From Plasmodiophora brassicae (Eukaryota), in the NCBI GenBank assembly GCA_036867785.1, contig CP145423.1, positions 1-64,000 of the forward strand: 64,000 nt of DNA. Reading direction: 5' to 3'. How positions within the stretch are numbered: the first letter of the stretch is position 1; each line of letters starts with the position of its first letter. Both the position numbers and the translations under genes were made by a program. The notes under the pieces were generated by a model that was not told the origin of the DNA, did not search any database, and was given only the letters and a program-made list of their open reading frames with translations. This document shows, one piece after another, positions 10,474 to 63,000 of the stretch.

Positions 10474-13400
10474 TTATTTCTTGGGTTCCCCGTGGAGGTA
10501 GTAGACCCAGGGCGGTACAGTGGCCTGGTCGGCGCCGCCCGTGCATGTAACAACCAGCTTGCCGTTCGTGGGCTGGGCCCCCTGGAACCCGACCTGTATG
10601 CTGACCTCCTTCTTCGTATCGATCGTTTCGCCCTTCTTCCCGATCGTGAACGCCGGATTGTCCACCGTGTAGACGAACTCGCTGCGCTGGCCAAACACGT
10701 TCCTGAACCGGACGGCCTGCGAGGCGCCCGCTGTGATGCTGATGGGGCCCTCCGGTCGTGGCACCGAGCAGTGCCCGTGCAGAGCGCATCGGTACTCGCC
10801 GGCATCCGCCGACGTCACCTTCAGCTCATCGCGGACGTCGTTCAGGCCGGACGGGTCGAACAGGACCGTCACCTGGCACTCCACACCAGTGTCGCCGTTC
10901 GCGTCTGCGCCGGCGCACGTGACCTTCTTGTCCCCGACAACCTCCAGGTCGCGGCAGTCAGACACCCATATCGACATCTGGGCTGCTACCAACCTGGAAC
11001 GCTTGGCCACCGACGAACGAACACTCATATGTGGTCGGCTTCTTCGACCAGGACAGGAATCGGAAGCGCTGGGTGCAGGTCGCGCCGAGGTACGCGTCGA
11101 ACCGCAACGACGCATCGACGGCGGCCGCGTGCGCCTGCAATTCGAGTTCGAGCGGGAAGTCGCCCAGCTCGGGGGACGACAGCGTCAGGCGGACGCGCTG
11201 TGGCCCGGCGGGATGGCGCGCCACGACCAACGGTCGGTACGCGATCGAGACCAGCGTCTCGCGTCGCGCGACGAGGCGTATGGGCAGGCCGCGAACGTCG
11301 ACGTCGGGCGACTCGCACGTGAACGATGTCACCGAGCAATCGCGACTCAGCCTGTTGTCCAGCGACACGGTCGCGAGCGCGCGCTGACGCACAGGCGACT
11401 GCAGAGCGATGCGATCGATGACGCCGGCGTCGGCGGCGACGACCGTCAGGCGGTGCACGAGGTATTCGCCTGGGGGACAACGCATGTCAACACATGATGT
11501 CGGACCTGGTATCGTGTGCCGCCCACCATTGTCGTCGTTGACGAACTTGACGAGGGCGACCGTCGTCCCGGGACGGTACGCGTAGATCTGGAGGCGCACG
11601 TCGCGCGACACGCCCCCGGGGACGCCGACCGAGTCGCCGGCCGTGATCGACACGGTGTCGTCGGGCGGCGACTCGCGCTGGATGTCGATGCGGAACCGCT
11701 GCGGGTCGTGCAGCCAGTTGCGGACGGGCAACGTGTGGGTCGACGCGCACTTGGCCCGCACCTGGCACGCACCGTCCGATTCCAGCGCCGGCGCCTGCGT
11801 CCGACCCTGCAGCCGGTAGGACAGGGCCGACCCGGTCGGCAGCGCCATGAAGAGCGTCCCTCGGTGCAGGTCAGCGGCCGTGGTCAGCGGCGCGTACACG
11901 ACGGCCAGGTTGCAGGTGGCACCGGCGGGCACCTCCAGGTCGGTGGCGGACCACGCCCCGTCGCTGATCACCGGGTGCAGCTGCCACACCGACGTCGACG
12001 TGTTCGTGATCGGCACCTGCACGGTCTGCGACCCACGTACGGCGGCGTCGAACGCCAGGTCGATGGCGGCGTCTGCGGGCGCGTCGACCGACGACCCCGT
12101 GACCTGCACCTGCACCGCACCCGCATCGTTGTCGTCCGGCACGCACCGCAGCGTCTGTCGCAGGTCCAGGCCCGGCACGTCCGGCGCGAACGTGACGTCG
12201 ATCAGCGCGTGGTCGTGCGGGGCGATCACGCCGGTCGCGGGTTCCAGTGCCCACCTGAACAACAACAACGTATCGTCAGCCACCAGGCCGGCGGCCTGCG
12301 ATCGCCCGCGACAACGTACGCCTGAGGGAGCCGCGCCACGTCCCACTGGAACCTGCTGGGCACGTCGCCGATGTTGTCGACCTTGACGCGCTTCGTGAGC
12401 GTGGACCCGGCGATGACGGCGCCGAACGGGACCAGGGTCTGCTCGAGCAGCAGGCCGACGCCATGGCAGGCGCCAGTCAGGTGCAGCAGGTGTTGTCGCA
12501 CGCCCGACGCGTCCAGCTCGACGGCGACGTCGACGGTGAACGGCAGCAGGCGCCCGGTCGGGCGGAACGCGACCGTGAACTCGGCTCGGTCCCGAGGGCG
12601 AATCGTGGTCGTCGCCGGTGACACTGACAGCGCGTCCAGGAGGCGATCGGCGTCCAGGTCGGCCTGCAGGTGCACGGCGACGACCGCCGACTTCACGCTG
12701 TTGTTCGCCAGGGCGAACGTCGACGTCGACGTCTGCCCCGGGCGAAGGGCGCCGATCGGCAGGATGCCGTTGGCGACGTCGACCAGGTCGATGCGGGGCG
12801 CCACGCCTTCGCCGACGACGACCAGGTCGACCTTGTAGAACCCGTTGACGTCGAACTGGACCACGTCGCGGTACGCGGTGAACGCCCGCGGCGTGAACCG
12901 CACCTGGAACGTGGCCGACTCGCCCGGGGCGAGCATGACGGCGGGCGCGCCCTGCACGTCCAGGTGCGCCTGGCGCGTGAACACGAGCTCGATGGAGACG
13001 GACTGTTCCGGTTCGCGATTCGTGACGACCAGCGGGGCCGTATGCGTCACCGGCGTCGCCGACGTGAACACGTAGCGCCTGCCGAACGCGTGCCGGCGCC
13101 AGGAGAAGTCCAGGTGCGGGCGGACGGCCTGGGCGCGCACCCCGATCGTGTACAGGTGCGCGTTGGCCACCCGGCAGCAGACGCGCACGTCGTCCAGGCA
13201 CACCTCCCGGCGCGACTGGAACGCCACCTCGCAGACCTGGTCCTGGCCGGGGCCGATCGTTCCCCGCTGCGGGTGCACCTGGACGACCTTGGTCTGCTCC
13301 AGGGCGGCACGGCGCGACGCCCGGCCCGCGCCCGCCGGCACCAGGACGCTCCAGGCGAAGTCGAACTTGAACTTGCCGTTGTTCGTCAGGCGCAGCGGGC

Positions 13401-16400
13401 GCGCGACCCGCTCCACGACGTGCACGTCGCCAAAGTCAACGACGGGGGCGTCCGAGGGCGACAGGACGCGCCCGTCCAGCTCGACCTGGTCGTGGACGGC
13501 GTACCCGTCGGCCTTGATGTTCAGGCTGACCCGCTCCGATTTCTTCCTGATCCGGAAGACGACGTTGACGTTGTAGGTGCGCTCGTGGCGAGCGGTCAGC
13601 GTGACGGCCAGCGGGAGGCGCGCGTTCGGCGGCACGACGCCCTGCGCCGGGTCGATCCGCAGGCACGTCGGCGCCTGGTGCAATTCGACGGCGTCGGCGT
13701 GGAACTGGAACGGGATGTGCTCGTTGTTCACCAGGTAGACGGTCTCGGTGGCCGCCGACCCGACCAGCATCTCGGCAAAGTGCAACGACGACGCCGACAG
13801 CGTCACGTCGGGTTCGGTGACGGTGCCGACCAGCAGGAACGGCACCTGGACGCCCAGGTCGGCGATCTCGAACCGCCAGAACGCCTCCTGCAGGGCGGTC
13901 GCGTCGGGCGTGAACTCGAACACCATCTCGAATCGCTTGCCGGCCTTGACGACGCCCTTGGGCGTCGCGCACGTGAACGCCGCCGACGATTTCACCGGGT
14001 GCCCGTCGTGCAACCGCCATTCGAACGCCCACGACTGCCCGGTCGGGTTGACGACCTGGAAGCGGCGCGTGTTGCGGACGCGGGTGCCCAACGATGTGAA
14101 CTCGACGACCTTCCACAGGTTGGCGTCCAGCTTGGGCCCCGGGCACGTCGCCGACCGCCGGGCGGCGGTCAGGTAGTCGCAGTTGACCAGGTCGAAGTGG
14201 CACTGCGGTCGGCGCCCCTCGCCCGACAGGTCAATGACGAGGTCGGCCAGGCGACCGGCCGCATCGCGAATGCTCCCGGTGAACGCCCTGGCATCGGTGG
14301 GCAGGAACTTGACGACGAACGTTTCCTGGCCCTTGCCGTCGATCGCGCCGGTATCGGGTGCGATCGTCCACGGCGGGTCGCACCGCCAGGCGTACGGCAG
14401 GCGGGTCAACGCCGCGTTCGCGATCGTGAACCGGTAGGCGCGCGCCTGGAACATCATGGTCGCAGCGAACGCGATCGAGCGTGTCGAGCACGTGTACGAC
14501 ACACGATCGGCGACGGCGTTGACCGCGAGTGCCAATGTGGATTTGCGTTCGCCCGGTGACCACTCTGGTTCTGGGACGGCCTCGGTGCGCTCCTGGCCGT
14601 CCGCGAACGACACCACGTGCATGGCGTCCGTCCAGGGTGAGGCATCGTTGGCGTCGGCCAGGAGAATCTCGTTGAGCTGGCAGTGGAGCGCCCTGCGCCT
14701 GATGTCGACGGGCGCCGGCGCGTTCAGGCCGACGAGAACGGTCAGCGACGAGTGCGGATGAATGTGGCCCGCGTTCGGCTCCACCGTGACCAGGTCCTGT
14801 GCGGCCCACTCGAAGCGGTACGTGCGCCCGGATTCGTTCTGCAATTGCACCGGGCGCTGCACAGTGACGCCCAGGTCGACGTCGCCAAAGTCGACGACGT
14901 CGTCGTCGGCGGTGACGTCCTCTTCGTAGACGAGCGCCGACAGGGCCAGGTGCGTCACCTCGAACACGTTCCGTAGGACGCCCATCCGCAGGCGGCCGCT
15001 TCGTGCACCGACGCGCCCGGGTGCGACAGCGAACCCGGCTTGGAAGTCGTGCTGGGCGCCCGGTGCAATCGTCACCAGCGATCCGAGGCCCGAGAACGAG
15101 AACTCGCCGGCGCCCTCGTCCAGGTCGAAACGGACCGTGGCCGGTACGATCCCGTCGTTACGCACCGTCACCGGGAGCGTCAGCGTCCCGCGCCGAGTGC
15201 GCCCAAAGTCGACCTGGCCAGACGACCGTTCAGTACTCGAGCAATGCGTTGCGCTCAGGTGCGTTGCGCACCTTGACGGCCCCAGTAGGTGTGCGCTCGA
15301 CGGGCGCGATGGTGGACACCCGCGGCAGGGTCCCCTCGCCCTGCATCTCGAATTGCAGAACGCAGGACGGGTTGCGATCGACGGTGGCACTGAACGCGGC
15401 CTGATAGGTGCGGATAGCGCTCGGCGCGAACGTGACCGTCACGTAGCGGTGCTCGTGCGACGGGATGTGCAGGTGCGTCGGCTGCACGTCGAACGCGTTG
15501 TCCGTGTTGCCCGTCAGCGACAGGTTCACGTCGCACGGGATCTTACCCGGGTTGCTCATCTTGAAGCGCTCCTTGATCGACGACCGATCGTCGACGATGA
15601 CGGGCGCGAACCGGAACTGGCGCTCCTCCAGGGCGTACGCGTTCCTGGGTGGACCGTGCCCATGTCCGGACGGCGGTACCGGCCCGTGCGCGCCCGCACC
15701 GGCCGGTGCCGCTGGTGGCGCCCGGCCGATGACCTGCTGCTCCTCGAAGATGGACTCGAAATCGGTGGTGTTCAGGCGTGGGTTGACGGCCTCGGCGGTC
15801 AGCTCGACTTCGACGGGCGGTGCCGCCGGGTCCACGCCGGACACAATGACAGGCAGGACGGCGCGGAACACGCCCTCCTGCGTCGCGTGGATGTCGACCG
15901 TCACCGTCTGTGTCGTGCCCGGTGCAATTCGGCCACGACCAGGGCTGACCTGTACGAATGGCTAAGGGCGAGCGAATGCTGCGTTTCGTGCCGTCTTTCG
16001 TACGGTGAAGCCGGCGACGGCCAGAGGCGCGCCGCTGTCAGCGCCCGGTGGATGATCCTCATCTGACAGGCGGTAGTCGAACGGGAACTCGCCCGCGTTC
16101 ACCAGATCGAAGGTCTTCTGCCGCTCGACGTCCACCTGCATGCTGCCGAAGTGGATGGACCTGGACGGCGCCAGGCGGAACTTGGAGTACCGGGACGCGA
16201 TCGACAGGCGAATCGGCGTGGACTCCACGACGGTGCTCTTGGTCGTCTCGATCAGGTCCAGGCGCAGGACTGGTTTCGCGCGCAGGTCCATCTCTCCCTG
16301 TCAGCAGCAGCAGCAGCAGCCGTCAGTTACGTATACCTTGGTACAGGCAGCGCTGAGCGCGGCGCTTACGACGGTCTTGAACCTGATGACGACATCGGTG

Positions 16401-19400
16401 CCGGCGCTCGTGCCCGCCGAAAGCTTGCCGGACATCGGTTCGACCTGAACCTGATTGGCGAGGTCGCGTCGCAGTCTGCCTGACCTGCCCGTGAACGCCA
16501 ATGCGAACCCGACATCGTACTTGCCTGCGATAGGGATGATGATCAGAGGGGCGATCCCGGCCGCACACCGGTCGGCGCCATCCTGACCTCGGTTGTTCAT
16601 GACGAATTTCCGTTCGACGACATCGCCGACCCGGGTCGTGCCAAAGTCGATCAATGCGCCCGGTGGTAACTCCACGTTGGCCTTCACGACGAACGCCTCT
16701 GCCTGGACGCGGATCGGGCGCGTCTCGACGTGGACGCCGTTCGTGTCGTTGATGAGCAGCTCCAGGGGCAGGTCGACAACGACCTCGGCGGCGGCCAGGA
16801 ACCGGAACACGGGCGATACGGCGGCACCGGGCGCCAGACTGCCCGCCTTCGGGCTGACCTCGATCTGGGCCGGCACCGCCTGGTCCGGTCGCGGACGGAT
16901 CTCCCATCGGACGCCGACCTTCGTTGTGTTCCTCAGGTGGATCGTCCGGGCGTCCTCGGTGCCGACCAGCAACCGGTCGAACTGAACCGACAACGGGTCG
17001 GCGTTCGGGGCGTCGCCGGCGCCCTCCACTGACAGCGCCGGGCGCGCCCCGCAGCATTCCATCGGGAAGACGATGTCCCTCGGGTTGTCGTCGATTCGCA
17101 CGCGCAGCACGCGACGATGCGCGCCCAGGGTCTTGGGCACGGCCCAGACCTGCGTGGTTGCCGCCGCCAATCAGCGAGGACGCCGGCGACGCACACTGGG
17201 ATCGTGCCCTACCTTGACGACGCCGACCTCGCCAACGTTGACCTCCAGGGTTCGTGGCTCGAACCCGAAGCTGTCGTCCACAGGTGCTGGGGCTGATGGA
17301 ACAGCAGCAGCAGCGGCATCTGGTTCGGCAGGCGCCGCACCGGGCGCCGGCTCATCGTCCCAGGCAATGCGGAGGGTCGTGCGGAACAGGCCCGTGTTGG
17401 CGAACCTCCACGTCTCGGCGGTGTCGCCCGGCTGGACGCCGTTGACGAGGACGGCGCCAAAGTCGAACACGCCCGGGTCGCTGCACCACTGGCGGACGCC
17501 GAGGCGCGGGCGCCGGCCTCGACGCACGAACACGGACCGGGCGTCGGTGCCGATGTCGGGGCGCGCCGCTGTGCCACGACACGTCACCTACCGGACGCGC
17601 ATGTCATCGGACTGCGCGCGCGCACCACCCCACAGCTTGGGCCATTCGAACGCACCCTACATACCTGATGGGTGACGCGCTTGCCGGCGGCGTCGGCGGC
17701 GACGACCTCGAACAGCAACGTGCCTTCGTGGGTGCCGCATTCCGACGATCGATAGGTCAGCGGCAGGTCCAGGGCGGCGCCGGCCGGGACCACCCAGCGG
17801 GTCGCCGACCCCGCCAACCGGAACGGGCCGGGCTGGCGACGGACGCGGGGCGCCGGCCGCCACACGATCTGTTTGACGGCGCCGATCGGGATGCGGTTGG
17901 CGACGACGGCCAGCTCGCGCGACGACAGGCGGTCGTTCAGGGCGGCACGCAGCGCGTCCAGGTCGTCGAACAGGAGCGTCTGCTCCGGCTGGCCGACGCG
18001 CCACTCGAAGTCGTCGGTGGGCGACGGGGCGCCCAGCTCCGGGTCCGGCTGGACATCGTTGCAGACGATCGTGTAGAACCGTCGCCCGACGCAATCGCCG
18101 ACGTTGTCGATGGCGGCCTTCAGATCGCGGATGACACGGGCGACGCCGGCGGGGCCGTCGACGGCGACCTTGCACGACAGGGATGGGACGAGGATCCCCC
18201 GCGGGTACGGCACCGAGCTGGGCGCCAGCGGGGCACCCTCCCGGAACAGGACGTAATCGCGGACCAGCTTCGTGAGCACCTCGCCCGACAGGTACTGCGG
18301 CGCGCCCGACGCCATCGCGTCCTGCACGGATATCGATAGCGCCAGCGACGACGGATTCTCGTTCGACGTCGCGTCCGGCTTCTTCTTCTTCTTCTCGGCC
18401 GCCACCGCCTGCCCCATGCCGGATCGTTAGCGCACGCGCGCCTACCCGCCGTCGCGGCGCGTACCTTGGCGTCCAGCACCGCCGACGCGTAGTGCTCGAC
18501 GACGCGGTCGACGTTGACGACAGCGAGCTGGAACTCCTTGCTGATCGTGTCCACGGTCGCATCGCTGGCGCCCGTCATGACGACGAACCTCCAGGGCGTC
18601 GACACAGCGGCAGCGTTACCGGCGTCCGTTACGCCCGTGTCGGGTGCCACGACGGCGTCGTCCAGTTCGGCGATGCGTCGTACGCCCGGGCGCCGCGGTT
18701 CGACCAGCATGCGGCCCCGGGCGTCGAACGTGCCCCGGTCGCGCAGGCGCTGCTCATCAGCGAGGTAGGCGTCGTCCCAGTCGACGCTGAACAGTTCGGC
18801 GTCGCAGTCGCCGTCGTTCGTCACGCGCACGGAGACGGCGGGCGACTCGGCGCCCGGCAGGACCGGCGCGAACTCGACCGTGCTGCGCTCCAGGCGCAGG
18901 CGCGTGACGAGGCCCCGGCCCGTGACGGCCAGGTCGGACGTCGGGCCATGCGCGACCCGGATCGGGAGGCGCGTGTTCACCGGGCGCCCGTCGATGGGCG
19001 TGAACAGCACGGGCACGTCCTGATGGGTGCCGGGCGCCAGGGTGCCCGCTCGGCACCCATCGGCCACGGTCACGGGTTCCTGCGCCGACGGCACGACAAC
19101 GGACCAGTCGACGGGGACGGGCGTCGGGTTCGACAGGCGCACGTACCGGGTGCGCACGTGCCCGACGGGTACGTCGGCGAACTCGAGCGTGTCGCTCGAC
19201 AGGCGGACCTCGGGGACGATCACACGGCACGACAACGCCAGGCGCCAGGCCGGTCCACCGCCGCCGACGACCACCAGGTCGAACACGGATGTCGTGACGG
19301 CACGGCCGGCGCCGTCGTCCGGGCCCACTGCCCTCTTCGCCGCCGTCGACGTCGCCGCGTACGTCGCCGTCACCTTGACGGACGCGCCGGGCGGCACGGC

Positions 19401-22400
19401 GACGATCTTGGCCGGGTCCAGGCGGAACGGCGTCGGCGCCGTCGGGGCGACCAGGTCGACGTCGACGGGGACATCGCCGCTGTTCGTGCACTCGAACGAC
19501 AGGCGGCGCGTCGTGCCCCGAACAATGTACCCGAGGTCGCACGTGTACGTGCCCAGCGCTCCAGTGACGACGTCGACCGGGACGGGGCCGAACGCGCCGG
19601 GATCGGCGTCGGCCACCTGCAACTGCTGCAGGTACAGGTCGCGAGGGGCGCCCTCGCGGCCAGGCAGCGACGTCGACAGCAGGCGGCAGATGCCGACGGC
19701 CCGGACGGCAATGGAGACGGGGCGATGGAACGCGACGAACAGGTCGAACGAGGCGGCGAACGCCTGCGGGCGCCGCGGCACGATGCGAACGTGCAGGCGG
19801 AGGCGGGCGCCGGGCGCCAGCGACGCGCGGCAGGGGCGGACGGAGAGGCGCGAGCGCAGGTGGTCGGCGATCTGGACGCGGACGTCGACGGCGACCCGGC
19901 CCGTGTTGCAGACCGTCAGGTCGCGCTCGTGGACGGCGTGGAAGTCGACGTTGCCAAAGTCGATGGCGTTGCCCTCGGCGTCGATCGTGTACTCGACGGT
20001 GGCCGCGTCGCCGCGCAGGTCGATCGCGTAGGTCGGCCCGCCCTCCACCTGGCACAGCGCCGTGCAATCGGCGGCGACCTGCGCGTGCCCGAAGAACGAC
20101 AGGTCGAACGCCTGCGTGCCGCCCGGGGGCACCTCGCCCCACGCGGGCCAGATGTCGAACACTTCGTTGACGGGGAACGCCGATCCAGGCGCCGCCGCCC
20201 GGGCCTTCTTGCTGGACGCTTGCGACGACGGTTCCTGCAGGGCCCAGTGGAACGCGGCCGGGATCTCGGACGCGTTCCTGGCGACGACGCGCTCGACGCG
20301 CGACGTGTGCGGCAGGACGGGGCCGAACGTGACGACCTGCTTGTCGAATAGCAGGTTGGGGAACCAGATCTGGGCGACCAAGTCGATGTGGTCCCTGGCA
20401 GGGTGGTTCCGATGCGACACGACAAGCTGCGAACGGATGCACTCCGAGTGGCGCGACTCGTTGGCGAGGTCGAACGTGACCTCGATGGGGATGGACTCGC
20501 CCGGCGCCAACGACACCTCCAGCCGGTCCACGGTGAACGGCGCCTTGACGCCCAGGAACGCCACGATCGGCAGCGGGCACGCGTTCTTCATCTTGGCCGT
20601 CTTCCGCTGCGTTCGGGCCTACGTCGACGCGTTGGGAACCGGCAGCGAGCTGGGGCACGTCGCCCGGCGACCGAGCGACGCGCGACGTACCGAATGGTTG
20701 CGGTCGTATTTGTAGACGAATTGCATGCCGTCGAGGGAGAATTCGACGTGCGGGTTGACAAAGTTGGCGACGATGTGCGTCTCGTAGATGACCGTGGGCT
20801 CCTTGTCGCCCTGGATCAGGCTGGTGATCGTCCACAGCTCGTCGATCGGGCCGGGCGTCGCCGACCGACTCAGGATGGTGAACATGACGGACGACATGGG
20901 CTGGATGGTCACACGGGCCGGCTCCACGACCAGGGCGCTCTTCGCAGCGCACGCCCAGGTCAGCGTCTGCGGGCGCTCCCCGTAATTGTCCAGACGCACA
21001 ACCCGCCTGCATCGATGATTGGCACATGTGGGGCACACTACACGCCCCAGGCAGACACGCGCGTCCTTACGTGGCCACCTGCATGGTCATCAGGTGCGAC
21101 AGGTCGATCAGGGACAGGTCCGTCGGGCTGGTGATCGTCGTGCCGACGCCTGTCGCGCGGCACGGGATCTGGACGTGCTCGCCCTCCTGCGCACCCGTCA
21201 GACACGTCTGTGTGTGTGTGTGTGCGTTCGTCGACCCCGGCCCTTACGTCGACGAGAATGTGGAGAACGTCGCGGAACGCTACGTTGTCGTTGCAGGTGA
21301 CCTGGACGACGAGGTCGACGGCGTCGCCGGGCTGGACGGTGCCCTGGTTGGGGCGGACGCGGAACGGCGACTGCTTCCGGGCGTGGAAGGCGACGTAGCG
21401 CGCCTCGATGGGCGTCTCGTTGCGCAGGCGGACCAGGAGCTCCGCCGGCTTCAGGACGGGAATGTCGCGCCAGTCCAGCAGGGCCTTGGAGGGGATCAGG
21501 CGGGCCCCGATGCCGACGGCGCTCACCGTGACCTGCATCGGCGGCTCTGAACTGCCGCACGTTCGAACGTAGACCAGCATCTCGATGTCACCTGCACGAG
21601 GCGCCGACCCCATCCGTCAGTCAGGGACGATGCCCGCTGCAACAACAACCCAGTGTGCGTCCCGGCGCCTCACCGAGGGATTCGGCCTGGAACCCGATCT
21701 TGAGCGGCAACGTCGACCGCGGCAGGATCGTCCCGCTGTGGTACTCGAAGGATAGCGATCCCGAGCCGGCCCGGCTGACCTCGTTGGCGGTCAGCACCTC
21801 GAACTTCACCGGTAGGTCGCTGCCGTTCGCCAACTGAAGCGCCTGCTCGTACTTGTACCTGCCGACCACACACACACAAACGGTTAAGAACGGGCGACGT
21901 CCCGCGGGTGGCGCGCGCGCGCGCACGCCTACCTGAGGAAGCACTTCTTGAAGTTCACGGTCAGCTGCGGGAACGTGATCTCTGGTACGACACACTGGGC
22001 GCGTATCGGTATGGATTTCATGTTCTGGGCGACGCCCTCGATATCGACGACGACGGCGTACGCGTCGTACTCCTGGATGGTCTCGCTGCAGAGCGTGACG
22101 GTGATCGTTGCTGACTGCCGGGGAAGGATGGCGCCGACGGCCGGCTGGATGTCGAATTCCCGCCTGTGGAACGATCCGTCGCGTGGGCACCGGCAGACGT
22201 ACTTGATCGGGATGTCGCTCGTGTTCTTGAGTGCCATGCGCCGCGCGTTGTTGAACCCGTAGGACACGCGGCCAAAGTCCAACTGCTCGACGTCGACGTC
22301 GAACGACGGCGCCTGCACGGTGCCCGATAGGACCAGCTGCAGTGGGACGAGAGAGCCCTTCAGCGTCCACTGCAGCACCTCCTGGAACGGGCCCATGGTC

Positions 22401-51440: not shown

Positions 51441-52276
51441 GTCGACCTGTCGCACCTGATGACCATGTAGGTGTCCCCGTCGGCGTGGCGAGCGTCTCTT
51501 GCCTGTCCTGCACGTGACGCGCGTGCCCCGAACCTGCAGGTCGTCCTGGTCGGCAGCAGTCGATGAAACCGGTGCAGGGAGAGGCGCCCGTTTGCCGGTC
51601 GAGGGCACCAACAGCCGATCGTCACCGAATGACAGACAGTGGCAGCAACGCCCATGCCATGCGGATGCGAACGGGTGTGGACGCGAGTGAACACGTCCTC
51701 AGACAGTATTGAACTCGGATGATGACGAAATGTACAGCATCGGCTTGAGCGCGTGATTCGACAGGTTGGACCTCTGCAGCAGTCAGGCGACGTGAAACTG
51801 ATCTGTACGAGATCCTGCTAGTCGATCGGGCATGAGCACGCGGACGTGGGATTATGCCAAAGTGGAGCGGTGCTCCTGCAGCTGTCGGCTGCATAGGATG
51901 GGAAATCAAAGGTACCTATCATCTGCGCAACGCTTTAAGTCGGTCGCTGACGTCGTCTGCCTGTCATCACCATCGATGGATGTTTCATCAGGTGCCGTCG
52001 CAGACTGATCGGGAGTGTCCACGGCTGGTGTACTTGACCGAACGCCGGTGAATCAGACTGCCTGTATACACCGGCGCGCGACGCAGACGGTCAAACGCGG
52101 CTTGCCCAGCCACAATCATCGCTGTCGCGTGCATCGGTTACGCTGAAGCACAACGTTTCCTAGCGACGAGTGAATCGGCATTCTCGGGATGAACCAGCTG
52201 CCCAGTTACCAGGACCCTGGACACTGAACATGTGCCCGAAGTCGTTCAGGAGCAGGCTAATGACGCCGTTCGCCCA

Positions 52277-53750
52277 GCAAGTTGCCCTCCAGGAGCGTCA
52301 ACGAAGAGTGTGATAGAGGAACGTCGATATGTGTCACTGCTGCATGTTGGGTGGAGTCTCGTATGTAGACCGCGTCTAACAACGTTATTTGTTCACATCC
52401 GGGCACCACGTATAAACATCTAGGATGTCCTGAGAACGACCATGCGGTTGACAGGGGGATCGGCCGTCATTCGTCATGCGACAAAGCCGATATCACGTCC
52501 AGCGCTATGCCTTCACAAATCGAAGAACTAATAGACACGCGTAGCATTAGGGTTCACAGCGCAACGCCTGGCGCCCAGCACGCTCGCTATCAATGACGTC
52601 CAGCTCGGCAGGAACCATTAACCGTGAGACCAGGACGGCATCCACACAAAGGCGCCCGGCATGCAGCCAAGGCGCTATATTGTGACTACTGGTCAATAGG
52701 AACGCTGATGTGGTCCGCCCAGCTGGGCATCTGGAGGGAGGCTTGTTGGTGGGAGCTAGACGTCAAGACGATCGTCGCTTTGTCACAATCCACGAACAAT
52801 ACCTTCAAGAACGTGCTGGACTTGCTGCCGAGTAAGATGGACTGGTTCTCGACTTTGAACAATCGTCGAACGTTGCGGATCACGACACCCGGCCCCTGTA
52901 CGTGACCAGTTACATCAATAAGGCCATCGCCTTGGATGACAAACCCTTGATATCGACTGCCTCTTCAACCACCCAGCCCTCGGATCGCTTGACGAGGGCT
53001 GTCACCGTCCGCTCGCCCAGAAGTTGGCGAACAAATAATTTCAGTTGGTGCGCCAGGGTCGCCCTGTTCCCCGCCGGGAAGGATACGGTGGGCGCAGCAC
53101 AGCAGAAGGTGAGTGCAACGACCTACGTGTATACCTTTACCTGCATAAGCAGGCAGGGGTCCCAGCCCGCCGTCGGTGTCCCCGTCGCCACCAATTCAGT
53201 GTAGTTGGCGTGTTGGAAGGCGATGGTCGTACGCCCAGTGTCGTTCTCGATCGCAATCTGCACGCTGTCGTACGTTGGCGCGGCGCCGTCCCGTAGGATT
53301 TCCGCACCGGTGCCATGCCGTCTCATTCGGTTGCCCGACCGTGATCGAGTATCTGCGCAGCAACGCGGGACGGCGTGCCGCGCCAACCTACGACGACGTA
53401 CAGATCGTGATCGACAACCTCACTGGGCATTCGACCGCTGCCTTCCAACACGCCAACTACGTTGAAGTGGTGGCGACGGGGACACCGACGGCGGGCCGGG
53501 ATCCTAAAGGTATACACGTCATCAGGTTGCCGCACTCACCATCTGATGTGCAGCGCCCGGGGAACAGGGTGATCCTGGCGCACCAACTAAAGTTATATGT
53601 TCGCCACCTGCTGGGCGAGCGGACGGTGGCAGCCTTCGTGAAGCGACACGAGGGCTGGGTGGTTAAGAAGGCAGCCGATATCAAAGGTTTGTCATCCTGC
53701 CTCCAAATGTCAAGGCGATGGCCTTATTGATGTAACTGGTCACGTACAGG
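52277..53750 (-). mobile_element. Degenerate non-LTR (LINE-like) RT fragment with fold-back duplication, copy 1
   Basis: GRDPKGIHVIRL...VILAHQLKLYVRHLLGERTVAAFVKR (RT domains 1-2), LFVDCDKA (domain 3), TVNGS and an LGVP-like motif. Inverted arms are about 52895-53292 and 53367-53750. Confidence 0.55.
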
Positions 53751-56197
53751 AAGTCCATCAGAAAGCGTGAAATGCACGACTTCGCATAGGAAGCATTGAT
53801 GGCCTTGTTGCGAAAAATGCATTGGCCTTTGACAACACGGCACCAGAATAAAAGACAACAAGAGAAGAAGCTCGCGAAGTAGAGCGAAGCGTTTCCGATG
53901 GGCGAACGTTGCCGAACTCAGCTCGTATATGCGGCTGATTCGAGAATGCATCGAATTGCGCAAGACGCTGACGAATTTGGAGGTTCGAATTTGTCTGTGC
54001 AATGCCACCTCGAAGCCTCTCACGAGGCTGAAATATCGATGACGCCAGGAATGCGAATCAACCGCCGCCCATTGCCTCATGGTGATGATATGGATGTGCA
54101 GCCAGCAGCGCTCCAGAGAGGATAAGGTGTAAGTGCCGAATGACCCATGCAGAGAAATTGCCGGGAATAATGTGCCACCATTATCGGTACAACCCACGGA
54201 AGAAACGTGGCCAAACAGCAGCGGATCGTCGGAACGGCACGTCAGGTGTCCATGCATATCCGCTCTGATGAGAGTTGTCGCCATCGCAAGTTGCAGCTTC
54301 TTGCCGATACTGAACGCTTCCGATACTGTTGAGCTCAGGAGCTCTTTCATGAACTTGATCCAAAGCTCCATACAATAGGTCCACAGAAAACCATAAACGG
54401 GGCCCGATTATGTCACCGAGATGCGCGAGTGAATGCATCTGATTCCATTTCAATCAAACAAATTATGGACCATGCCTGGGCATATGTCTTACAGAAATTG
54501 TCAGCATCACTGGAGAAATAACAGATTCAAGGCGCGCTAGTGAATCCAAGGACGATTCGGACCGCCGGTTTAAGTCGGACCTGACAAGCGCCTTCGACAG
54601 GATCTGAGACGCCCAAGTCCCAACGCAAAAAGTCGAAGAACGTTATCCAGAACTTGACCGCGCGTTCACTGACGTTCCTTTCGAGGACGACTCGAGGAAT
54701 GACCGAATACGAAAGTCCAATGCCCACGTTGCCGAGCCAACCGATGGGGTCTGAAGTTTTCCATGATTTCGACGTAGCCCATCACCTATTCGATATATCA
54801 GATATGCCGTTAGACATAGAGCGGTTGCCATTACCATCGATGCAAACGTGCAACGAACCACTTGACGAGAGGACTTGAATGCATCGTATACCACAAACGC
54901 ATAATGATACATTATGTTTAGCTCAAATGCATGTAGGCGAAGAAAATTTCGTCGATGGGCTTTGGCAATATTTGGGATCAAGAAGACCGGTTGCATCAGC
55001 CCAACGTTGCAACGGACAGCTGCTGACAACCCCAGAACAATCTGTACGAGCGGTACAACCGATCTTGATCCCCATCTGAGGACATCCGCACCGTCAAGCA
55101 TTGACGAAAGTCCCAGAGGGAACTCATCGAATCGCATGCACCGCCGCATGAAATCGGCATAACGCACAGAGAAGTTTGCCCCGTCGGTCCAGTCACGGAA
55201 GGTATCGGCTGGCTCGTCGAGTTGATTGATATGTCTAGCGTATTCTTCGTTCAACTGTTGAGCAAACGTTTTGGACCGGAACAGCGACTGGAGGAAGAGG
55301 ATTCGCGAGAATTAAGGAAATGGCTCCGAAGTAGCACCGCAAGCATTGCCAGGCGCGTTCGTGTCCGCTGGCGAGATATGGCCCTCGGAACATACACGAT
55401 AAGTCAGGGAAGGAATGGCTAGGCCGAGGTCGAGGAGATGCCTCCGCAGACGAGCGACAGAGGCGATGCCGACGTTTGTGCTGTTTCGCGACAACATGAA
55501 ATCGTCAAAATCGCCGATGTCGATGCCTCTCGTGGTCGCCTATTCGTGAACCTACAGGGGTAGGATATCGTCAATCTGGGTTTCAGCATCCTTGCACAGT
55601 GCACCTTACCAGCGCGTTATGCTTCTCAACCAATTTCATCGACCTTTCACAGCTAATCTACAGTCGGCTGTCGACAGCCTGGCACGAATGGCCTCGTCGA
55701 AAACATCAACGGCGTCCGTGTCCAGTTCGTCAATTGCCACGGGCACCAGACGAGAGTTCATGTGCGTCATAAGATGATCGTAGAGAGCAAAGCTCGGCCA
55801 TATATCCACCCTCGTTGTCACGACGCCAATCGTCGAACGAATCGGTGTTTTCACGAGCCGCAACGTCGAGGAGTGCAGGTCGAATGCCGGATGCCGCGAC
55901 TCGTGGTGTATCATCAGGTCCCTCGAGTTCGAACTGTGCCGGACCGTCATCGTCATTCACGAGTTCAACATCATCACCGCCAGACATGGCATCCCCATTG
56001 TGGCGACGTCGGATCCATTGACGCAGGAAATACTCATTTGCGTCACCCTCGTCCGGCAGTTTCGCTTCGCCGTCATCGCTGGACTCCAACCATTCCCGAA
56101 GAAAGAAGTTGCCATCGACGTCGTCATCGGGCGACTTGGCCTCGACACCATCGCCACGCCTCGCCCATTCCTGCCAGAGCAGTCTCCCACTGCGTCA
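52277..56197 (+). repeat. Segmental duplication, copy 1 (copy 2 at about 60020-64000)
   Basis: Colinear, high-identity match at an offset of about 7.75-7.8 kb. Several ORF translations are identical between the copies. Confidence 0.96.
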
Positions 56198-56301: not shown

Positions 56302-58030
56302 TCAAGTTTCAACTTCCATGACGATCCGGCCGCGCAGAGAATTGGATCCTGTAACCGATTGCTGTGGCTGCAAGCCGTCCCCAATTGACCGAAATTGACA
56401 TTCTCTGTAATGTTGACCTGAATTTGACGCGGAATTTTCCCAGAGATGTCGAGACGTTCCGTTGAGACGTGCCTGATGTACCATTCGATTGCACGACGTT
56501 TCGATCTCGTGCACGTTGATCGGACCCAGGTCGACTTCACTTGAAGATGGCTCAGCGGAGTCTGGTTCCTGAGGGGCTTGAAATTGGTTCATTCTGGCAG
56601 CCATGCGGCGCACAGTCTCGATCGAATCAACGTCGACCGCAGCGCATCCTGAGAGCGTATCCATCTCGGTACATCCCGATGCGATGATGTTCTCCAATAG
56701 CTTATGCGGGTTAATGAGAAGAGCAGACAGGAGATTGTCATCAAACAGAATCACTGAAATCGTGTCGGAGACGTAGTAGGTCACATGGTACAGCTTAAGG
56801 TTGCCAACCTCAGTCTCCAGAGCTAGTCGTGACTGGAACTTGTACCGTACCATTCTCATGATTGTCCCGGTAACCTTGCCTTCTGCGGAAGTGACTTCTC
56901 GTGACTGGACGTCGCGAAATGTGGCTTCAGTCAACTGGTCAGCTAAATGACCAGGAATTATGTTTCCACCACGACAGCCCGAATCCAGCTCGTATGGGAC
57001 GCGCATGCCTCCAGCACTATACTACATGTTGTAGATCGTCCTCAGTCCCAGCGTACCCGTTAGTCTTCTGGACCTTTATAGGGCGATTGGCGCGAACGAG
57101 CTGGATGCAGCGTTTCTTCGATGGCTTCGTCGGGCAGACTCGCAATCCGTGGTCGCCGCCGAAGTTCCAGCAAGTGATCTGACCCTTGCCGGCGTCCTTG
57201 TTGTCAGGGTCGTCCCTCTAGCTGTCGCTTCGTACCAGGTGTCTCATTCCCGTTCGGTGGTGCTCCAGGAGCCATAGCTTTCGATGCATTCGGCTGCGTG
57301 TTGTGAACGATAGCATGCTTCGGACGGGTCGGTCGGTTGGTAGCGGGCGATGCTGCGGGACGCGCCGAACGCCAGTTGCCAACGCCACTTGATACTTGTG
57401 ACTCTTGTCGTTGAGGTGTACTTCGGCACAGGTCTTGTTAGACACTTCCGCGATCTGCGTGGAGCCTTGCACGAAGACCTTGTATCTGACCCATTCCAGG
57501 GCGTGCTTCATGATGGCCTTCAAGTCACCCTCGCCCTCATGGCCTTGTCGTCCTTGACCCACTGCCGCAAATGGTCCCATAACGGTCACGGCTGGAGTGA
57601 ATCCACCAACAATCGACCCAGTGCTCGACGTCCACCGGTCGTGTCGCGTAGATGAAGTCATGCGCGTTTCCACTGGATCTCCGTCATCCGATCCAAAATG
57701 GACTGCACCCCTGATCCTTCAGCGTAGGGAGGCTTACGTCCATCGACAACTCCTTGGCAAACTTGGCTTCGATGTCCTGAGACGTGAGACTGTGGCTGGC
57801 CGGAAGACTCTTGATCTGGCCAGCGATCCACCCTTCAAGTTCGTCATCAGTCAGCATGTCGACGCTGAGAAGGAAGAGGTGATTCAGGGCAACAATGGAC
57901 GTCAGCTGTGGCGTCGTGAAGCAAAGCGGATTGCTTGCGGCTTGATCCTAGCTGCCTCAGATCGTTGTCCTTCGCGATCATTCACGACGGCGCAGTACCG
58001 GTCACATCGCACCTTTCAACTTCAGGGTCG
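56302..58030 (-). mobile_element. LTR retrotransposon (probably Ty3/Gypsy) gag-protease remnant
   Basis: Decayed zinc knuckle ITCWNFGGDHGLRVCP (about 57135-57180), followed by the aspartic protease motif YELDSG. It is truncated against the CACTA-like remnant. Confidence 0.7.
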
Positions 58031-58447
58031 ACGTAGCATCCAGCTTCGTCGCGCGCGGGAGAATGCTGATGTCGGCCGAGCTCTTGACGTTGCCGACGTT
58101 CACGCCTTGCGACTCTGATGCCATGACCGAACGAAGATATATGCGACGATCCACCGTTTGTGGACGTGATAACGTAGACCTGGGTGTCTAGCGCCCATTG
58201 GCACGTTCGCCGGTGAGCGCACCGAGCACCACGCGCACTGTCGTCGGCTCGCCACCCGGTTTGGCTGAGCCACGCACTGCGCATGGGTCATCGACTCATC
58301 GTGCAAGGCGGCTGGACAACGCCGCCGACCTGTGTCGCAGCTGCTCATCGCCGCGCCAGGTGTCGAATAGCCGTTTATTCTTGATAACGTTCGTTGAATG
58401 GCAAAATCCTGTGAACAGGCATTGATGGAAGCATTGCTTTGCTCAAC

Positions 58448-59852
58448 TCACATCGTTATCCTCAACGCCAGTGTCTTGTTGCTCAACTCATCATCGTGCG
58501 ATTCTTCCTTAGCTTCGCCCCTGCTCAACTCATCGTCATCTTCAACGTCAGCGCGCGATTCTTCCTGAGCTTCGTCGTCGCTCAATGCATCGTCATCTTC
58601 AACGCCAGCGCGCGATTCTTCCTGAGCTTCGTCGTCGCTCAACGCATCGTCATCTTCAACGTCAGCGCGCGATTCTTCCTGAGCTTCGTCGTCGCTCAAC
58701 GCATCGTCATCTTCAACGTCAGCGCGCGACTCTGGTTGAGTTTTGTCATTGGCTAGCTGGTTGGTAATCCGACGAAGAGCATGTAAATCGCCAATGTTGT
58801 TGTTCACAAACTCAATCCCTCTCCGGCCTCTAATGAAATCATTCTGCCGCCAGTACCTCGCACCAGCCACAACACGCTCAAATTGGTTGGAGCTGATCTT
58901 GAATATGGGTGTCGTAATTTCAACCTGGCCAAGGACGAGCCTCTCTTTGGCCATTCTGGCGAAATTCATCGCCGTTTCGCTAATGTCGGTGAAGGTTGAG
59001 ATATCAAGAGCACGTTGCTCTTCAATGTCGAAAGCAAGAACTTCGCGGTCATCTTTGAAGAACACCTTCTGCTTAATTGAATAGAATATTGCATAATGAG
59101 GGTCGGTCGTGAACGATATATACGCCGACATTTCTGTGTATCCTTCCTCTATATGCTGTGACTCGCTCCGCGTACTCAGAGGGGCGCCGGGTCGCAGGCA
59201 CGGAACATCAGCGCCCAGTTGAGTTTCGTCGAAATTGAATTTATGGCACGCTCGGTACAGACGAACGTAACCTTCTTCGACGCTAGCAAGACCGGAGGGC
59301 GTCATATCGGCCCCTGTTAGCGAGTCGCCTACTTGCTGAATATTGCGGTTAACAGGCGACGACGACGACGACGATGACGATGCGAAAATACAAAATACCA
59401 TTGACGGCTTCCACCCAAAACGAAATTTCCCCGCGTCATTTGTCAACCCTGGGTCCATCGCCATTATCAAGCATGTTGAGGGCATCAGAAGGGAGTTCTG
59501 CATTACAAGGGGTTGTTTGCGAGTTTGGGCCTCCGTCGGCTAAATACAACGATACCGTGCCAAGAATGCAGCACCACTTGGGCAGATTTGCTGATTTCAC
59601 TTTCAAGTCAGAACTGAACTCCGTGGGAGTGCGCAAAATGCCTCGTGTGGACTGTTTTGGCACTGCCTGCGAATCTTGGATGGCATCGCCTGGCGTCTCG
59701 TTCTCCAGCAAACCTGCGCCCTGATGATCAACCATGGCTAGATCGCCCGCTTCAGCCCTGCCGCATTTCCAGTCAGGGTCTGGGCACGATGCGTCGCCGC
59801 CGGCAGCACTTCGTTTAGCTGTGTCCCGCGTTTCCGTTTGTGCTTCCTCCAT
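58448..59852 (-). CDS. ADP-ribosyltransferase-fold (R-S-E type) domain protein with acidic repeat tail, probably multi-exon
   Basis: VRLYRA...QHIEEG...SAYISFTTDPHYAIFY...AMNFARMAKERLVLGQV lies in an open 351-codon frame. The upstream ORF 59436-59852 is a likely first exon, but the 5' structure is uncertain. Confidence 0.65.
58499..58729 (-). repeat. 57-bp coding tandem repeat (AQEESRADVEDDDALSDDE), about 4 copies
   Basis: The 57-bp period is visible directly and is in frame within ORF 58448-59503. Confidence 0.95.
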
Positions 59853-60019
59853 GTCTGGCGTTCGTGCCGGTGTCGTCAGGCATGGCGTCGGGTGGCGACG
59901 CTGTCCTGAGGTCGACCCCGCTCGGCATTCGATGTCCAGGTGTTATGGCATCTGTGCCCGGTGGCACGCCTGCTGCTGGTGATTAGGCCCTGACGCTGCG
60001 CAACGGCGCCGTTCGGCCT

Positions 60020-63000
60020 GCAAGTTGCCCACTAGGAGCGTCAACGAAGGGTGTGATAGAGGAACGCCGATATGTGTCACTGCTGCATGTTGGGTGGAGT
60101 CTTGTGTGTAAACTGCGTCTAACAACGTTCTTTGTTCATATCCTGGCACCACGTATCAACATTTAGGATGTCCTGAGAACGGCCATGCGGTTGACAAGGG
60201 GATCGGCCGTCATTCGATGGAATTGGCACCCATTTCGCTCCATTCATGCGACAAAGTCGTTACATCGCCCAGCGCTATGCCTGCACCAATCGAAGAAGTA
60301 ATAAACATGCTTACGAAGCATTACGGTTTACAGCGCAACGCCTGGCGCCCAGCACGCTCGCTAGCGACGATGTCCAGCTCGGCAGGAACCATTAACCGTG
60401 AGACCAGGAGGGCATCCACACGAAGGCGACCGGCATGCAGCCAAGGCGCTATATTGTGACTACTGGTCCATAGGAATGCTAATGTGGTCCGCCCAGCTCG
60501 GCATCTGTTGGGAGGCTTGCTCTTGTCCATGGTCGACGCAAGATGACAAGACGATTGATGCTTTGTCAAAGCCCCAGAGCCACACCTTTAAGAACTTGCT
60601 GGAGTTGCTGCCGAGAAAGATGGACTGGATCTCGACTTTGAAGAACCGTCGACCGTTGCGGATCACGACAACCGGCCCTGTACGTGACCAATTACATCAA
60701 TAAGGCCATCGCATTGACATTTGGAGGCAGGATGGCAAACCTTTGATATCGGCAGCCTTTTTTACCACCCAACCCTCGGGTCGCTTGACGAGCGCTGCCG
60801 CTGTCCGCTCGCCCAGCAGGTGGCGAACATATAATTTCAGTTGGTGCGCCAGGGTCACCCTGTTCCCTGCCGCGAAGGACACGGCGTGCGCAGCACAGCA
60901 GAAGACGAGTGCAACAACCTAATGGCGTGTATACCTTTACCTGCATGTGCAGGCAGGGACCCAGCCGGCCGTCGGTGTCCCCGTCGTCACCAATTCAACG
61001 TAGTTGGCGTGTTGGAAGGCGATGGTCGTACGCCCAGTGTCGTTCTCGATCGCAATCTGCACGCTGTCGTACGTTGGCGCGGCGCCGTCCCGTAGGATTT
61101 CCGCACCGGTGCCATGCCGTCTCATTCGGTTGCCCGACCGTGATCGAGTATCTGCGCAGCAACGCGGGACGGCGTGCCGCGCCAACCTACGACGACGTAC
61201 AGATCGTGATCGACAACCTCACTGGGCATTCGACCGCTGCCTTCCAACACGCCAACTACGTTGAAGTGGTGGCGACGGGGACACCGACGGCGGGCCGGGA
61301 TCCTAAAGGTATACACGTCATCAGGTTGCCGCACTCACCATCTGATGTGCAGCGCCCGGGGAACAGGGTGATCCTGGCGCACCAACTAAAGTTATATGTT
61401 CGCCACCTGCTGGGCGAGCGGACGGTGGCAGCCTTCGTGAAGCGACACGAGGGCTGGGTGGTTAAGAAGGCAGCCGATATCAAAGGTTTGTCATCCTGCC
61501 TCCAAATGTCAAGGCGATGGCCTTATTGATGTAACTGGTCACGTACAGGAAGTCCATCAGAAAGCGTGAAATGCACGACTTCGCATAGGAAGCATTGATG
61601 GCCTTGTTGCGAAAAATGCATTGGCCTTTGACAACACGGCACCAGAATAAAAGACAACAAGAGAAGAAGCTCGCGAAGTAGAGCGAAGCGTTTCCGATAG
61701 GCGAACGTTGCCGAACTCAGCTCGTATATGCGGCTGATTCGAGAATGCATCGAATTGCGCAAGACGCTGACGAATTTGGAGGAAGGTTCGAATTTGTCTG
61801 CGCGATGCCACCTCGAAGCCCCTCACGAGTCTGAAATATCGATGACGCCAGGAATGCGAATCAACCGCCGCCCATTGCCTCATGGTGATGATATGGCCGA
61901 GCAGCCAGCAGCGCTCCAGAGAGGATAAGGTGTAAGTGCCGAATGACCCATGCAGAGACATTTCCGGGAATACTGTGCCACCATTATCGGTACAACCCAT
62001 GGAAGAAACGTGGCCAAACAGCAGCGGATCGTCAGAACGGCACGTCAGGTGTCCATGCATATCCGCTCTGATGAGAGTTGCCGCCATCGCAAGTTGCAGC
62101 TTCTTGCCGATACTGAACGCTTCCGATACTGTTGAGCTCAGGAGCTCTTTCATGAACTTGATCCAAAGCTCCATACAATTGGTCCACAGAAAACCGTAAA
62201 CTGGGCCCCAGTATCGTATTATGCCACCGAGATGCGCGAGTGAATGCATCTGATTCCATTTCAATCAAACAAATTATGGACCATGTCTGGGCATATGTCT
62301 TACAGAAATTGTCAGCATCACTGGAGAAATAACAGATTCAAGGCGCGCTAGTGAATCCAAGAACGATTCGGACCGCCGGTTTAAGTCGGACCTGACAAAC
62401 GCCTTCGACAGGATCTGAGACGCCCAACGCAAAAACGTCGAAGAACGTTATCCAGAACTTGACCGCGCGTTCACTGGCGTTCCTCTCGAGGACGACTCGA
62501 TGAATGACCGAATAAAAAAGTTCAATGCCTACGTCGCCGAGCCAACCGATGGAGTCTGAAGCTTTCCAGGATGTCGACGTAGTCCATCACCTATTCGATA
62601 TATCAGATATGCCGTTAGACTTACAGCGGTTGCCATTACCATCGATGCAAATGTACAACGAGCCACTTGACGAGAGGATTGAATGCATCGTATACCACAA
62701 ACCGATAATGATACATGATGTTCAGCTCAAATGCATCTAGGCGAAGAAAATTCCGTCGATGGGCTTTGGCAATATTTGGGATCAAGAAGACCGGTTGCAT
62801 CAGCCCAACGTTGCAACGGACAGCTGCTGACAACCCCAGAACAATCTGTACGAGCGGTACAACCGATCTTGATCCCCATCTGAGGACATCCGCACCGTCA
62901 AGCATTGACGAAAGTCCCAGAGGGAACTCATCGAATCGCATGCACCGCCGCATGAAATCGGCATAACGCACAGAGAAGTTTGCCCCGTCGGTCCAGTCAC

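Follow-up and report, generated by a model that had tools for sequence, protein, structure and literature searches.

The minus strand of a 64,000-nucleotide stretch of Plasmodiophora brassicae DNA (GenBank assembly GCA_036867785.1, contig CP145423.1, positions 1 to 64,000; this whole stretch is called the window hereafter) carries an uninterrupted open reading frame (ORF) at positions 58448-59503, made up of 351 codons and a stop. Its product, P0001, is a candidate ADP-ribosyltransferase (ART) related to the tips of bacterial toxins, and this gene is our subject. The public gene call for the same ORF, P0002, starts at Met35 and gives a protein of 317 amino acids. The predicted core and its motifs are placed as follows, with residues numbered along P0001 and compared with RhsF-CT, the bacterial toxin tip whose solved structure is 9ZDM.

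58889..59272, minus strand: predicted ADP-ribosyltransferase core, residues 78-205, based on the AlphaFold2 model, on fold matches that are exclusively ARTs and on the profile match to 9ZDM.
59252..59257, minus strand: Tyr83-Arg84 in strand 1, the Arg being the predicted residue for binding nicotinamide adenine dinucleotide (NAD); it is invariant in 5/5 sequences and aligned with the VYR of RhsF-CT (R1403).
59153..59155, minus strand: His117, between the Arg and Ser motifs; invariant in 5/5 sequences and aligned with the His in 'QEHVENG' of RhsF-CT.
59108..59116, minus strand: Ser130-Phe131-Thr132, the S-x-T motif in strand 2; Ser and Thr are invariant in 5/5 sequences and aligned with S1445-T1446 of RhsF-CT.
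59081..59083, minus strand: Tyr141, in the helix after the S-x-T strand; aligned with Tyr1456, which is required for RhsF-CT toxicity.
58943..58945, minus strand: Glu187, the predicted catalytic Glu, which opens a strand (E117-121 in the model); invariant in 5/5 sequences and aligned with E1497.

Along P0001, LYRA within EEGYVRLYRACHKF (Tyr83-Arg84) comes first, followed by SAYISFTTDPHYAIFY (Ser130-Phe-Thr132 and Tyr141), where the S-x-T motif reads YISFTTDPHYA, and finally by NFARMAKERLVLG, which holds Glu187. The spacing is 46 residues from the arginine to the serine and 57 from the serine to the glutamate. The alignment of five sequences is composed of three of eukaryote type (P0001, P0003 and P0004) and two bacterial ones (P0006 and P0007). 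Nine of its positions are invariant: R84, H117, S130, T132, N180, A182, E187, L189 and G192. Since the R, S-x-T and E residues are kept in all five sequences, these motifs are not a chance occurrence.

P0001 has very few close relatives. A word-indexed search of 5.8 billion proteins returns only its own public call, and the 90% cluster of the gene has one member on one contig. When 1.84 billion cluster representatives are searched with phmmer, four proteins are matched at an expectation value (E) of 0.001 or less: the own call; P0003 (217 amino acids, 47% identical, E 2e-44); P0004 (231 amino acids, 34% identical, E 3.6e-9), a hypothetical protein of Blastocladiella emersonii ATCC 22665 (locus H9P43_003360); and P0005. 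This last one, a bacterial repeat protein of 1,686 amino acids matched over seven stretches (E 1.8e-6), is a repeat artefact and was kept out of all alignments. No further relatives appear in a profile search of the near-length range, in two scans of metagenome contigs, in contigs of prokaryote genomes or in viral contigs. Among longer proteins (8,000 candidates), there is neither a relative nor a fused form, which is weak evidence. The gene is single copy in the 64-kb window, with no paralogue there. A phmmer search of the core against the PDB gives interferon-gamma alone, at E 1.8, a chance match.

Two family profiles connect these proteins to a solved toxin structure: A1, which combines the three eukaryote-type sequences, and A2, in which P0006 is added. 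Among 177,635 PDB sequences, the best match of A1 is 9zdm_B, annotated as 'Probable Rhs-family protein', though its E of 0.052 is marginal. With A2 the same chain is matched at E 3.3e-6 over residues 14-118 of its 126, the next match being at E 0.46, so that 9ZDM is the only solved structure found by sequence. According to the preprint describing it, this is RhsF-CT of Chromobacterium violaceum, a type VI-secreted Rhs tip with an ART fold, whose toxicity requires R1403, Y1456 and E1497, with S1445 also at the site, and which is neutralised by a protein that occludes the active site (bioRxiv 10.64898/2025.12.06.692724). With a chain offset of 1387, R16, S58, Y69 and E110 of 9zdm correspond to R1403, S1445, Y1456 and E1497, and the HMMER alignments place them against R84, S130, Y141 and E187 of P0001. 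The same domain is called TreThr in a second paper, where it is shown to ADP-ribosylate charged tRNA-Thr(GGU) in the anticodon loop in an NAD-dependent manner (PMC13617354).

The bacterial intermediate P0006 is a 244-amino-acid ORF found with A1 in one genome out of 401 from one bacterial order (E 1.4e-6 per genome, over positions 3-129; about 6e-4 once corrected for the 401 genomes). Three other genomes in that scan give weaker values (E 0.012-0.027) over short parts of the profile and were not used. Comparison of A1 with P0006 in hhalign yields a probability of 94.9% and an E of 4.4e-8, with 28% identity over 120 columns. The P0006 gene is restricted to that genome among the nine of its bacterial family, and none of 381 genomes of a second bacterial phylum match. 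The Pfam family DUF7587 (PF24494, cut-off 27 bits) is matched by P0006 at 23.2 bits (E 8.4e-5) and by P0004 at 17.2 bits (E 5.8e-3); P0001 has no match to it at E <= 10, and the cut-off is not reached by any of the family. P0007, a true DUF7587 Rhs tip scoring 45.3 bits, matches 9ZDM at E 2.6e-8 and is aligned with A2 by hhalign (87.6%, E 3.5e-6, 88 columns). Because P0007 aligns with the family profile and also matches 9ZDM, DUF7587 is the TreThr-type ART domain. As judged from these profile comparisons, P0001 and its relatives are homologous to the DUF7587/TreThr toxin group.

In the bacterial genomes themselves, DUF7587 is found above cut-off in one of the 401 genomes of the phylum, where it forms the last ~130 residues of an ORF of 1,446 amino acids with an Rhs-type 'DPxGL' boundary. 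An orphan DUF7587 tip with the same score lies 3.9 kb downstream of this ORF (L126 and L129, contig 1 of G708), as in Rhs orphan-module arrays. P0006 (L122, contig 85 of G349) has a long basic low-complexity N-terminus; it lies directly downstream of a gene for a 380-amino-acid GNAT acetyltransferase and adjoins a fragment faintly matching the type VI secretion protein VasJ/ImpA (E 0.14). The phylum search with A2 gives matches in 3 of 401 genomes, the best being an FRG-domain protein. This protein is not a relative, and further profile matches (E 0.008-0.027) are weak or short and were left unused. The family profiles match bacterial FRG proteins weakly (E 0.016 and 9.6e-6), and these matches span the S-x-T strand together with the helix and the strand that follow. 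Both FRG ORFs are confirmed by Pfam, with E 3.4e-17 and 4.9e-12 (L121, 1249-2289, plus strand; L130, 1366-2163, plus strand).

Structure prediction leads to the same superfamily. For a 140-residue core (ORF residues 71-210) and an alignment of five sequences, AlphaFold2 reaches a predicted local distance difference test score (pLDDT) of 84.9 and a predicted template modelling score (pTM) of 0.80, with four of the five models above 78. In this model R84 lies in the first strand (E9-17), S130-T132 are in a strand that comes after a helix (E58-62), and E187 opens a strand, again after a helix. When the core model is compared with 48,161 representative solved chains in VIA-align, 41 chains are found at Z >= 5 and 7 at Z >= 8. 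The main matches are these:

TreX: Z 11.9, root-mean-square deviation 2.8 Å, 117/128 residues aligned.
EcPltA: Z 10.8, 127 residues aligned.
Pertussis toxin S1: Z 9.7 (9.7-10.8 over both fold comparisons).
Scabin: Z 9.3.
Heat-labile enterotoxin (LT): Z 8.8 (8.8-10.0 for LT and cholera A1 over both fold comparisons).
CARDS toxin: Z 7.6.

Lower down come pierisin, DarT, diphtheria toxin, PARPs and Tpt1, and the rows listed are all ART-superfamily proteins. In the second comparison, made over the 413 chains returned by Foldseek, 53 are at Z >= 8, and the top Foldseek rows are ART toxins with a probability near 1. If the first strand is free of gaps, the starts of the alignment ranges put R84 opposite R9 in both EcPltA and pertussis S1, and opposite R7 in cholera A1. 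For EcPltA, the arginine number is that given in the RhsF-CT preprint (bioRxiv 10.64898/2025.12.06.692724). Among the protein-language-model matches listed, seven of nine have a Pfam family, in every case pertussis S1/Scabin-like, NarE, DUF7587, Lart1 or ArtA. The first neighbour of the core scores 0.95, and one row shares 182 features. An earlier note on this DNA, made from the letters alone, had picked out LYRA, YISFTTD..YA and NFA...KE.LV.G and read them as a cholera/pertussis-type R-S-E (Arg-Ser-Glu) ART related to polymorphic-toxin tips. All three motifs are indeed found in that order and are conserved in both close relatives. The class itself is borne out by the 9ZDM profile match, with Arg, Ser and Glu in register, and by the ART-fold model; the route that the note had proposed, AlphaFold followed by Foldseek, thus gives a confident model in which the ART fold is present.

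Several observations weigh against this assignment. P0001 has no meaningful match in Pfam (E <= 10), NCBIfam, PADLOC or PHROGs. Because no model of these collections detects it, routine annotation leaves the protein 'hypothetical', and what ties it to known ARTs, in place of a direct family match, is a set of profiles, one bacterial intermediate and a predicted model. The first AlphaFold2 model (201 residues, three sequences) had a pLDDT of 43 and was unusable; its fold matches (Z <= 3.9, to unrelated proteins) were noise and were discarded. The later, confident model relies on two bacterial toxin-type sequences being part of its alignment, and the best Foldseek E-value, 3.9e-3, is modest. Tyr141 is not invariant, P0004 reading Y-F and P0006 K-W there. 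The canonical Q/E-x-E motif is replaced by A185-K-E187 in P0001, and by A-Q-E, A-S-E, S-S-E and H-Q-E in the relatives. An active enzyme is compatible with this, since the active ART TreThr also lacks the canonical form, with D-Q-E. The eukaryotic cores are mildly acidic (isoelectric points of 5.2-6.4), whereas the bacterial cores are basic (8.2 and 10.9). Lastly, the stretch or part of it is present in 18 public runs of six studies, none of them on record as RNA. It could then be asked whether the protein has another fold or function altogether, the ART assignment being an artefact of shallow alignments. The missing direct match, the failed first model and the weak FRG matches of the same profiles would all suit this. 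However, three independent lines agree, namely the profile E-values with the catalytic residues in register, the confident model with ART-only neighbours and the language-model neighbours. In addition, profile A1, which contains eukaryote-type sequences only, already ranked the ART 9ZDM first. A misleading resemblance of this kind is extremely improbable in our view.

With a probability of about 75%, we therefore read positions 58448-59503 as an intact gene for a stand-alone mono-ADP-ribosyltransferase of the R-S-E (cholera/pertussis/Scabin-like) clade. It would belong to a very small eukaryote-type family whose nearest outside relatives are DUF7587-type Rhs tips, including RhsF-CT/TreThr. The toxin superfamily is a known one; this tiny eukaryotic branch of it is new. 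Its core is predicted with confidence to take up the ART fold, and the protein is presumably an active NAD-using enzyme. It would bind NAD+ in the cleft of the split beta-sheet and transfer ADP-ribose to a macromolecule; alternatively, it may only hydrolyse NAD+.

Comparison with known systems makes both the likenesses and the differences clear. Like P0001, RhsF-CT/TreThr has a minimal ART core of ~125 residues, whose Arg, His, Ser-Thr, Tyr and Glu align with R84, H117, S130/T132, Y141 and E187. TreThr, however, is the tip of a bacterial Rhs toxin of ~1,500 residues, is delivered by type VI secretion with an immunity protein as partner, and modifies charged tRNA-Thr(GGU), whereas P0001 is encoded by a stand-alone gene in a eukaryotic chromosome, has an acidic core, and has gained a 57-residue extension and acidic repeats. 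Because the eukaryotic cores are mildly acidic and the bacterial ones basic, P0001 cannot simply be assumed to share TreThr's tRNA target. TreX of Xenorhabdus bovienii (PDB 8S2M and 9GCO) is the best structural match, a Scabin-like member of the R-S-E clade. In contrast to P0001 it is an antibacterial Rhs tip, and identity in the structural alignment is 15%. It modifies FtsZ (PMC13617354). Like P0001 it has a C-terminal extension, which in TreX binds the partner thioredoxin (PMC11606950). Bacterial polymorphic Rhs toxins are defined by Rhs/YD repeats, a delivery domain and an immunity gene. The ORF described here stands alone, and no such parts are among the Pfam matches of the 49 flanking ORFs.

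The A subunits of pertussis toxin (S1), EcPltA, typhoid PltA, cholera A1 and heat-labile enterotoxin A share the same fold, with Z 8.8-10.8 over 116-127 residues. The pertussis and cholera toxins also have an invariant His between the Arg and the Ser motif. These AB5 proteins differ in having B pentamers and an A2 linker, in carrying Q/E-x-E where P0001 has A-K-E, and in acting on animal-cell G proteins. No toxin B-subunit family is found among the 49 flanking ORFs at E <= 0.1, a search that divergent partners would escape. Scabin, ScARP and pierisin again have the same fold (Z 9.3 for Scabin and ScARP, 7.2 for pierisin-1), and pierisin is the precedent for this toxin clade in eukaryotes. All three carry Q-x-E. 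They differ from P0001 by targeting guanine in DNA, nucleosides or tRNA, and they have no direct sequence match to the family in the window.

Several start codons are available to the gene: P0001 contains candidate Met residues at positions 1, 7, 14, 16, 35 and 67. Two features bear on the choice.

59303..59305, minus strand: Met67, the likely true start; an invariant M column in the three-way eukaryote-type alignment A1, giving a protein of 285 amino acids.
59357..59380, minus strand: eight serine codons (TCG repeat), after the hydrophobic MVFCIFA of residues 35-41; contigs break here.

Met67 is favoured because this methionine is conserved in both eukaryote-type homologues. The N-terminus of P0003 reads MTLDD...GYIRLYRAC, and its Met aligns with Met67 just ahead of the domain. 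The earlier note had also described an apparently intact frame that ran from 58448 up to 59852. This stands for 58448-59503. It does not stand for 59504-59852: the ORF at 59436-59852 is in a different frame from the ART ORF, has no Pfam match, and neither a homologue nor a spliced contig supports its link to the gene. As a possible first exon it was rejected, there being no homologue and no joint, and the DNA there being repeated. From 59503 upward there are matching contigs of higher depth that lead on into different sequence elsewhere (joint 59537>59605; loose end at 59503), so this DNA must be repeated. At the other end of the gene, the TGA stop codon sits inside GTGAGT (58448-58453), a consensus splice donor. 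Splicing at this point was rejected as well, since contigs of three runs read straight through.

The choice of start also decides whether the protein could have a leader. A leader-like feature is found only in the Met35 form, where the seven hydrophobic residues MVFCIFA are followed by eight serines, with no basic residue between Met35 and the stretch. The conserved start Met67 lies directly before the domain, and no signal peptide is evident, as the same note had remarked. These details matter for a possible role of the protein within our reading, that of a secreted or translocated effector which the parasite would export to ADP-ribosylate a target in the host plant. Such a role would agree with the closest relatives being delivered toxins, with the position of the gene in a repeat-rich, lower-GC stretch, and with the short hydrophobic start that the Met35 form would have. 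But the hydrophobic stretch has only seven residues and no basic one ahead of it, the start conserved in the homologues lies after it, and both P0003 and P0004 begin without a hydrophobic leader. One of the homologues, moreover, comes from Blastocladiella emersonii, which is not known as a plant parasite. An effector role is thus rather unlikely. In general terms, one opinion paper states that the P. brassicae genome includes members of the ART family that have signal peptides (PMC8193517).

Beyond the core, the C-terminal part of P0001 is made up of two further elements.

58718..58888, minus strand: an extension of ~57 residues (206-262), basic, with an isoelectric point of 10.6; conserved among all three eukaryote-type members, with no counterpart in the bacterial Rhs tip.
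58491..58733, minus strand: 4.3 tandem copies of a 57-bp unit, encoding 19-residue acidic repeats (ESRADVEDDDALSDDEAQE).

The extension is covered only by the low-confidence first model. The tail (residues 263-351) contains 40 Asp and Glu among its 89 residues, and the 57-bp tandem repeat stays in frame throughout. P0003 ends in a single acidic stretch of this type (DAEDDDEL), which is expanded fourfold in P0001. A SURF2 match of P0001 (E 0.22) lies in this acidic tail and was set aside as compositional. Neither the basic extension nor the expanded acidic tail occurs in the bacterial tip; these two parts may serve to regulate the enzyme or to direct it.

The gene lies between two copies of a large repeat, which are in direct orientation and 7.74 kb apart.

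52264..56197, plus strand: left copy of the repeat (at least 3.9 kb), with a nested 856-bp foldback at 52895-53750.
60007..64000, plus strand: right copy (at least 3.9 kb), 94% identical to the left one and running off the end of the window, with a foldback at 60677-61549.

No protein domain is recognisable in the repeat. As the right copy is cut short by the end of the window, a pair of long terminal repeats, two insertions or a tandem duplication would all look alike here. The surroundings had been called transposon debris. The two direct copies that flank the gene fit this description, whereas the 49 flanking ORFs contain no transposase, reverse transcriptase or integrase in Pfam, the nearest thing being a weak match to a retroviral-type aspartyl protease at 56305-57021 on the minus strand (E 0.025, with a DSG motif).

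A gene held between repeats, with an acidic tail shared with P0003 and expanded in P0001, could also encode an enzyme that never leaves the cell. It would be an unsecreted ART with a conflict or regulatory function in the organism's own cells, for instance the toxic part of a selfish or defence module associated with the repeated DNA and kept in check by the acidic tail or by a partner. None of the three eukaryote-type members has a leader, the family is tiny and patchily distributed, and the bacterial relatives are neutralised by a protein that occludes their active site, all of which would suit an internal role of this kind. On the other hand, no partner gene is identified, there is no sign of mobility in the repeat or of the gene moving along with it, and the gene is single copy in the window, in a 90% cluster of one member on one contig. 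An internal function is therefore possible, if somewhat doubtful.

The composition of the gene sets it apart from its neighbours. Its GC content at third codon positions (GC3) is 0.55, compared with 0.64-0.90 in six other ORFs of the window, an atypical codon usage, and it lies in a lower-GC stretch rich in repeats. The window is otherwise eukaryotic, with long GC-rich ORFs encoding HYDIN/CFAP65-type Ig domains and a Not1 fragment. Sporadic occurrence, atypical codon usage, the absence of any visible intron and bacterial toxin tips as nearest outgroup together suggest that the gene reached eukaryotes by horizontal transfer from bacteria. A toxin gene acquired in this way, or carried in by the repeat, could by now be a silent relic that is no longer used. 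The codon usage and the repeat-rich neighbourhood are compatible with this, as is the lack of any run on record as RNA. Yet the ORF is intact over 351 codons with all predicted catalytic residues kept, its core is conserved in two relatives (47% and 34% identical), its tandem repeat remains in frame, and the contigs of four studies have the identical sequence. Disuse therefore appears improbable. In these contigs, from four runs of the four studies, positions 58362-59522 are covered colinearly with no differing letter and no joint. Positions 57000-58358 have no cover in the four runs, the contigs of three studies ending at 58362, 58370 and 58426, and no inference about expression is drawn from this.

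In the clubroot parasite, the protein would be a candidate enzymatic toxin of a crop pathogen. It is a eukaryotic side branch of a family of toxin tips whose first characterised member, a tRNA-modifying ART, was described only in 2025-2026, and it adds a further case to the bacterial conflict domains that eukaryotes have acquired. The literature found holds nothing on this gene, on a eukaryotic DUF7587-like family, or on a Plasmodiophora or Blastocladiella gene of this kind. The protein is small and has clear loss-of-function controls (R84 and E187), so it offers a handle on the eukaryotic substrate and on the role of the appended acidic repeat tail. A much more speculative scheme, and in our opinion a very improbable one, can be drawn from these elements. 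A plasmodiophorid parasite and a blastoclad fungus would each keep a domesticated Rhs/type VI tip of the TreThr kind. The acidic repeats would act as a built-in stand-in for the immunity protein: as a tail resembling a nucleic acid or a substrate, they would cover the active site until the enzyme arrives at its target. In the parasite, the enzyme thus set free would ADP-ribosylate a component of the host translation machinery, such as a tRNA.

Some minor features are found elsewhere in the window. The ORFs at 10958-21036 on the minus strand are very long, with a GC3 of about 0.90 and many HYDIN/CFAP65/ASH-type Ig domains, and presumably form a flagellar central-pair gene. A trace of DUF4218, a transposase-associated domain, is present at 594-1253 on the plus strand (E 7.5e-4). 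In both copies of the large repeat, the foldback has arms that are ~75% complementary and terminal inverted repeats that are perfect over 40 nucleotides, so that it resembles a nested foldback or an element of the miniature inverted-repeat transposable element (MITE) type. Finally, a 456-bp piece at 49194-49607 is 86% identical, in inverted orientation, to 11793-12248 in the region of the HYDIN-like ORFs, and abuts a 222-bp palindrome at 49607-49827.

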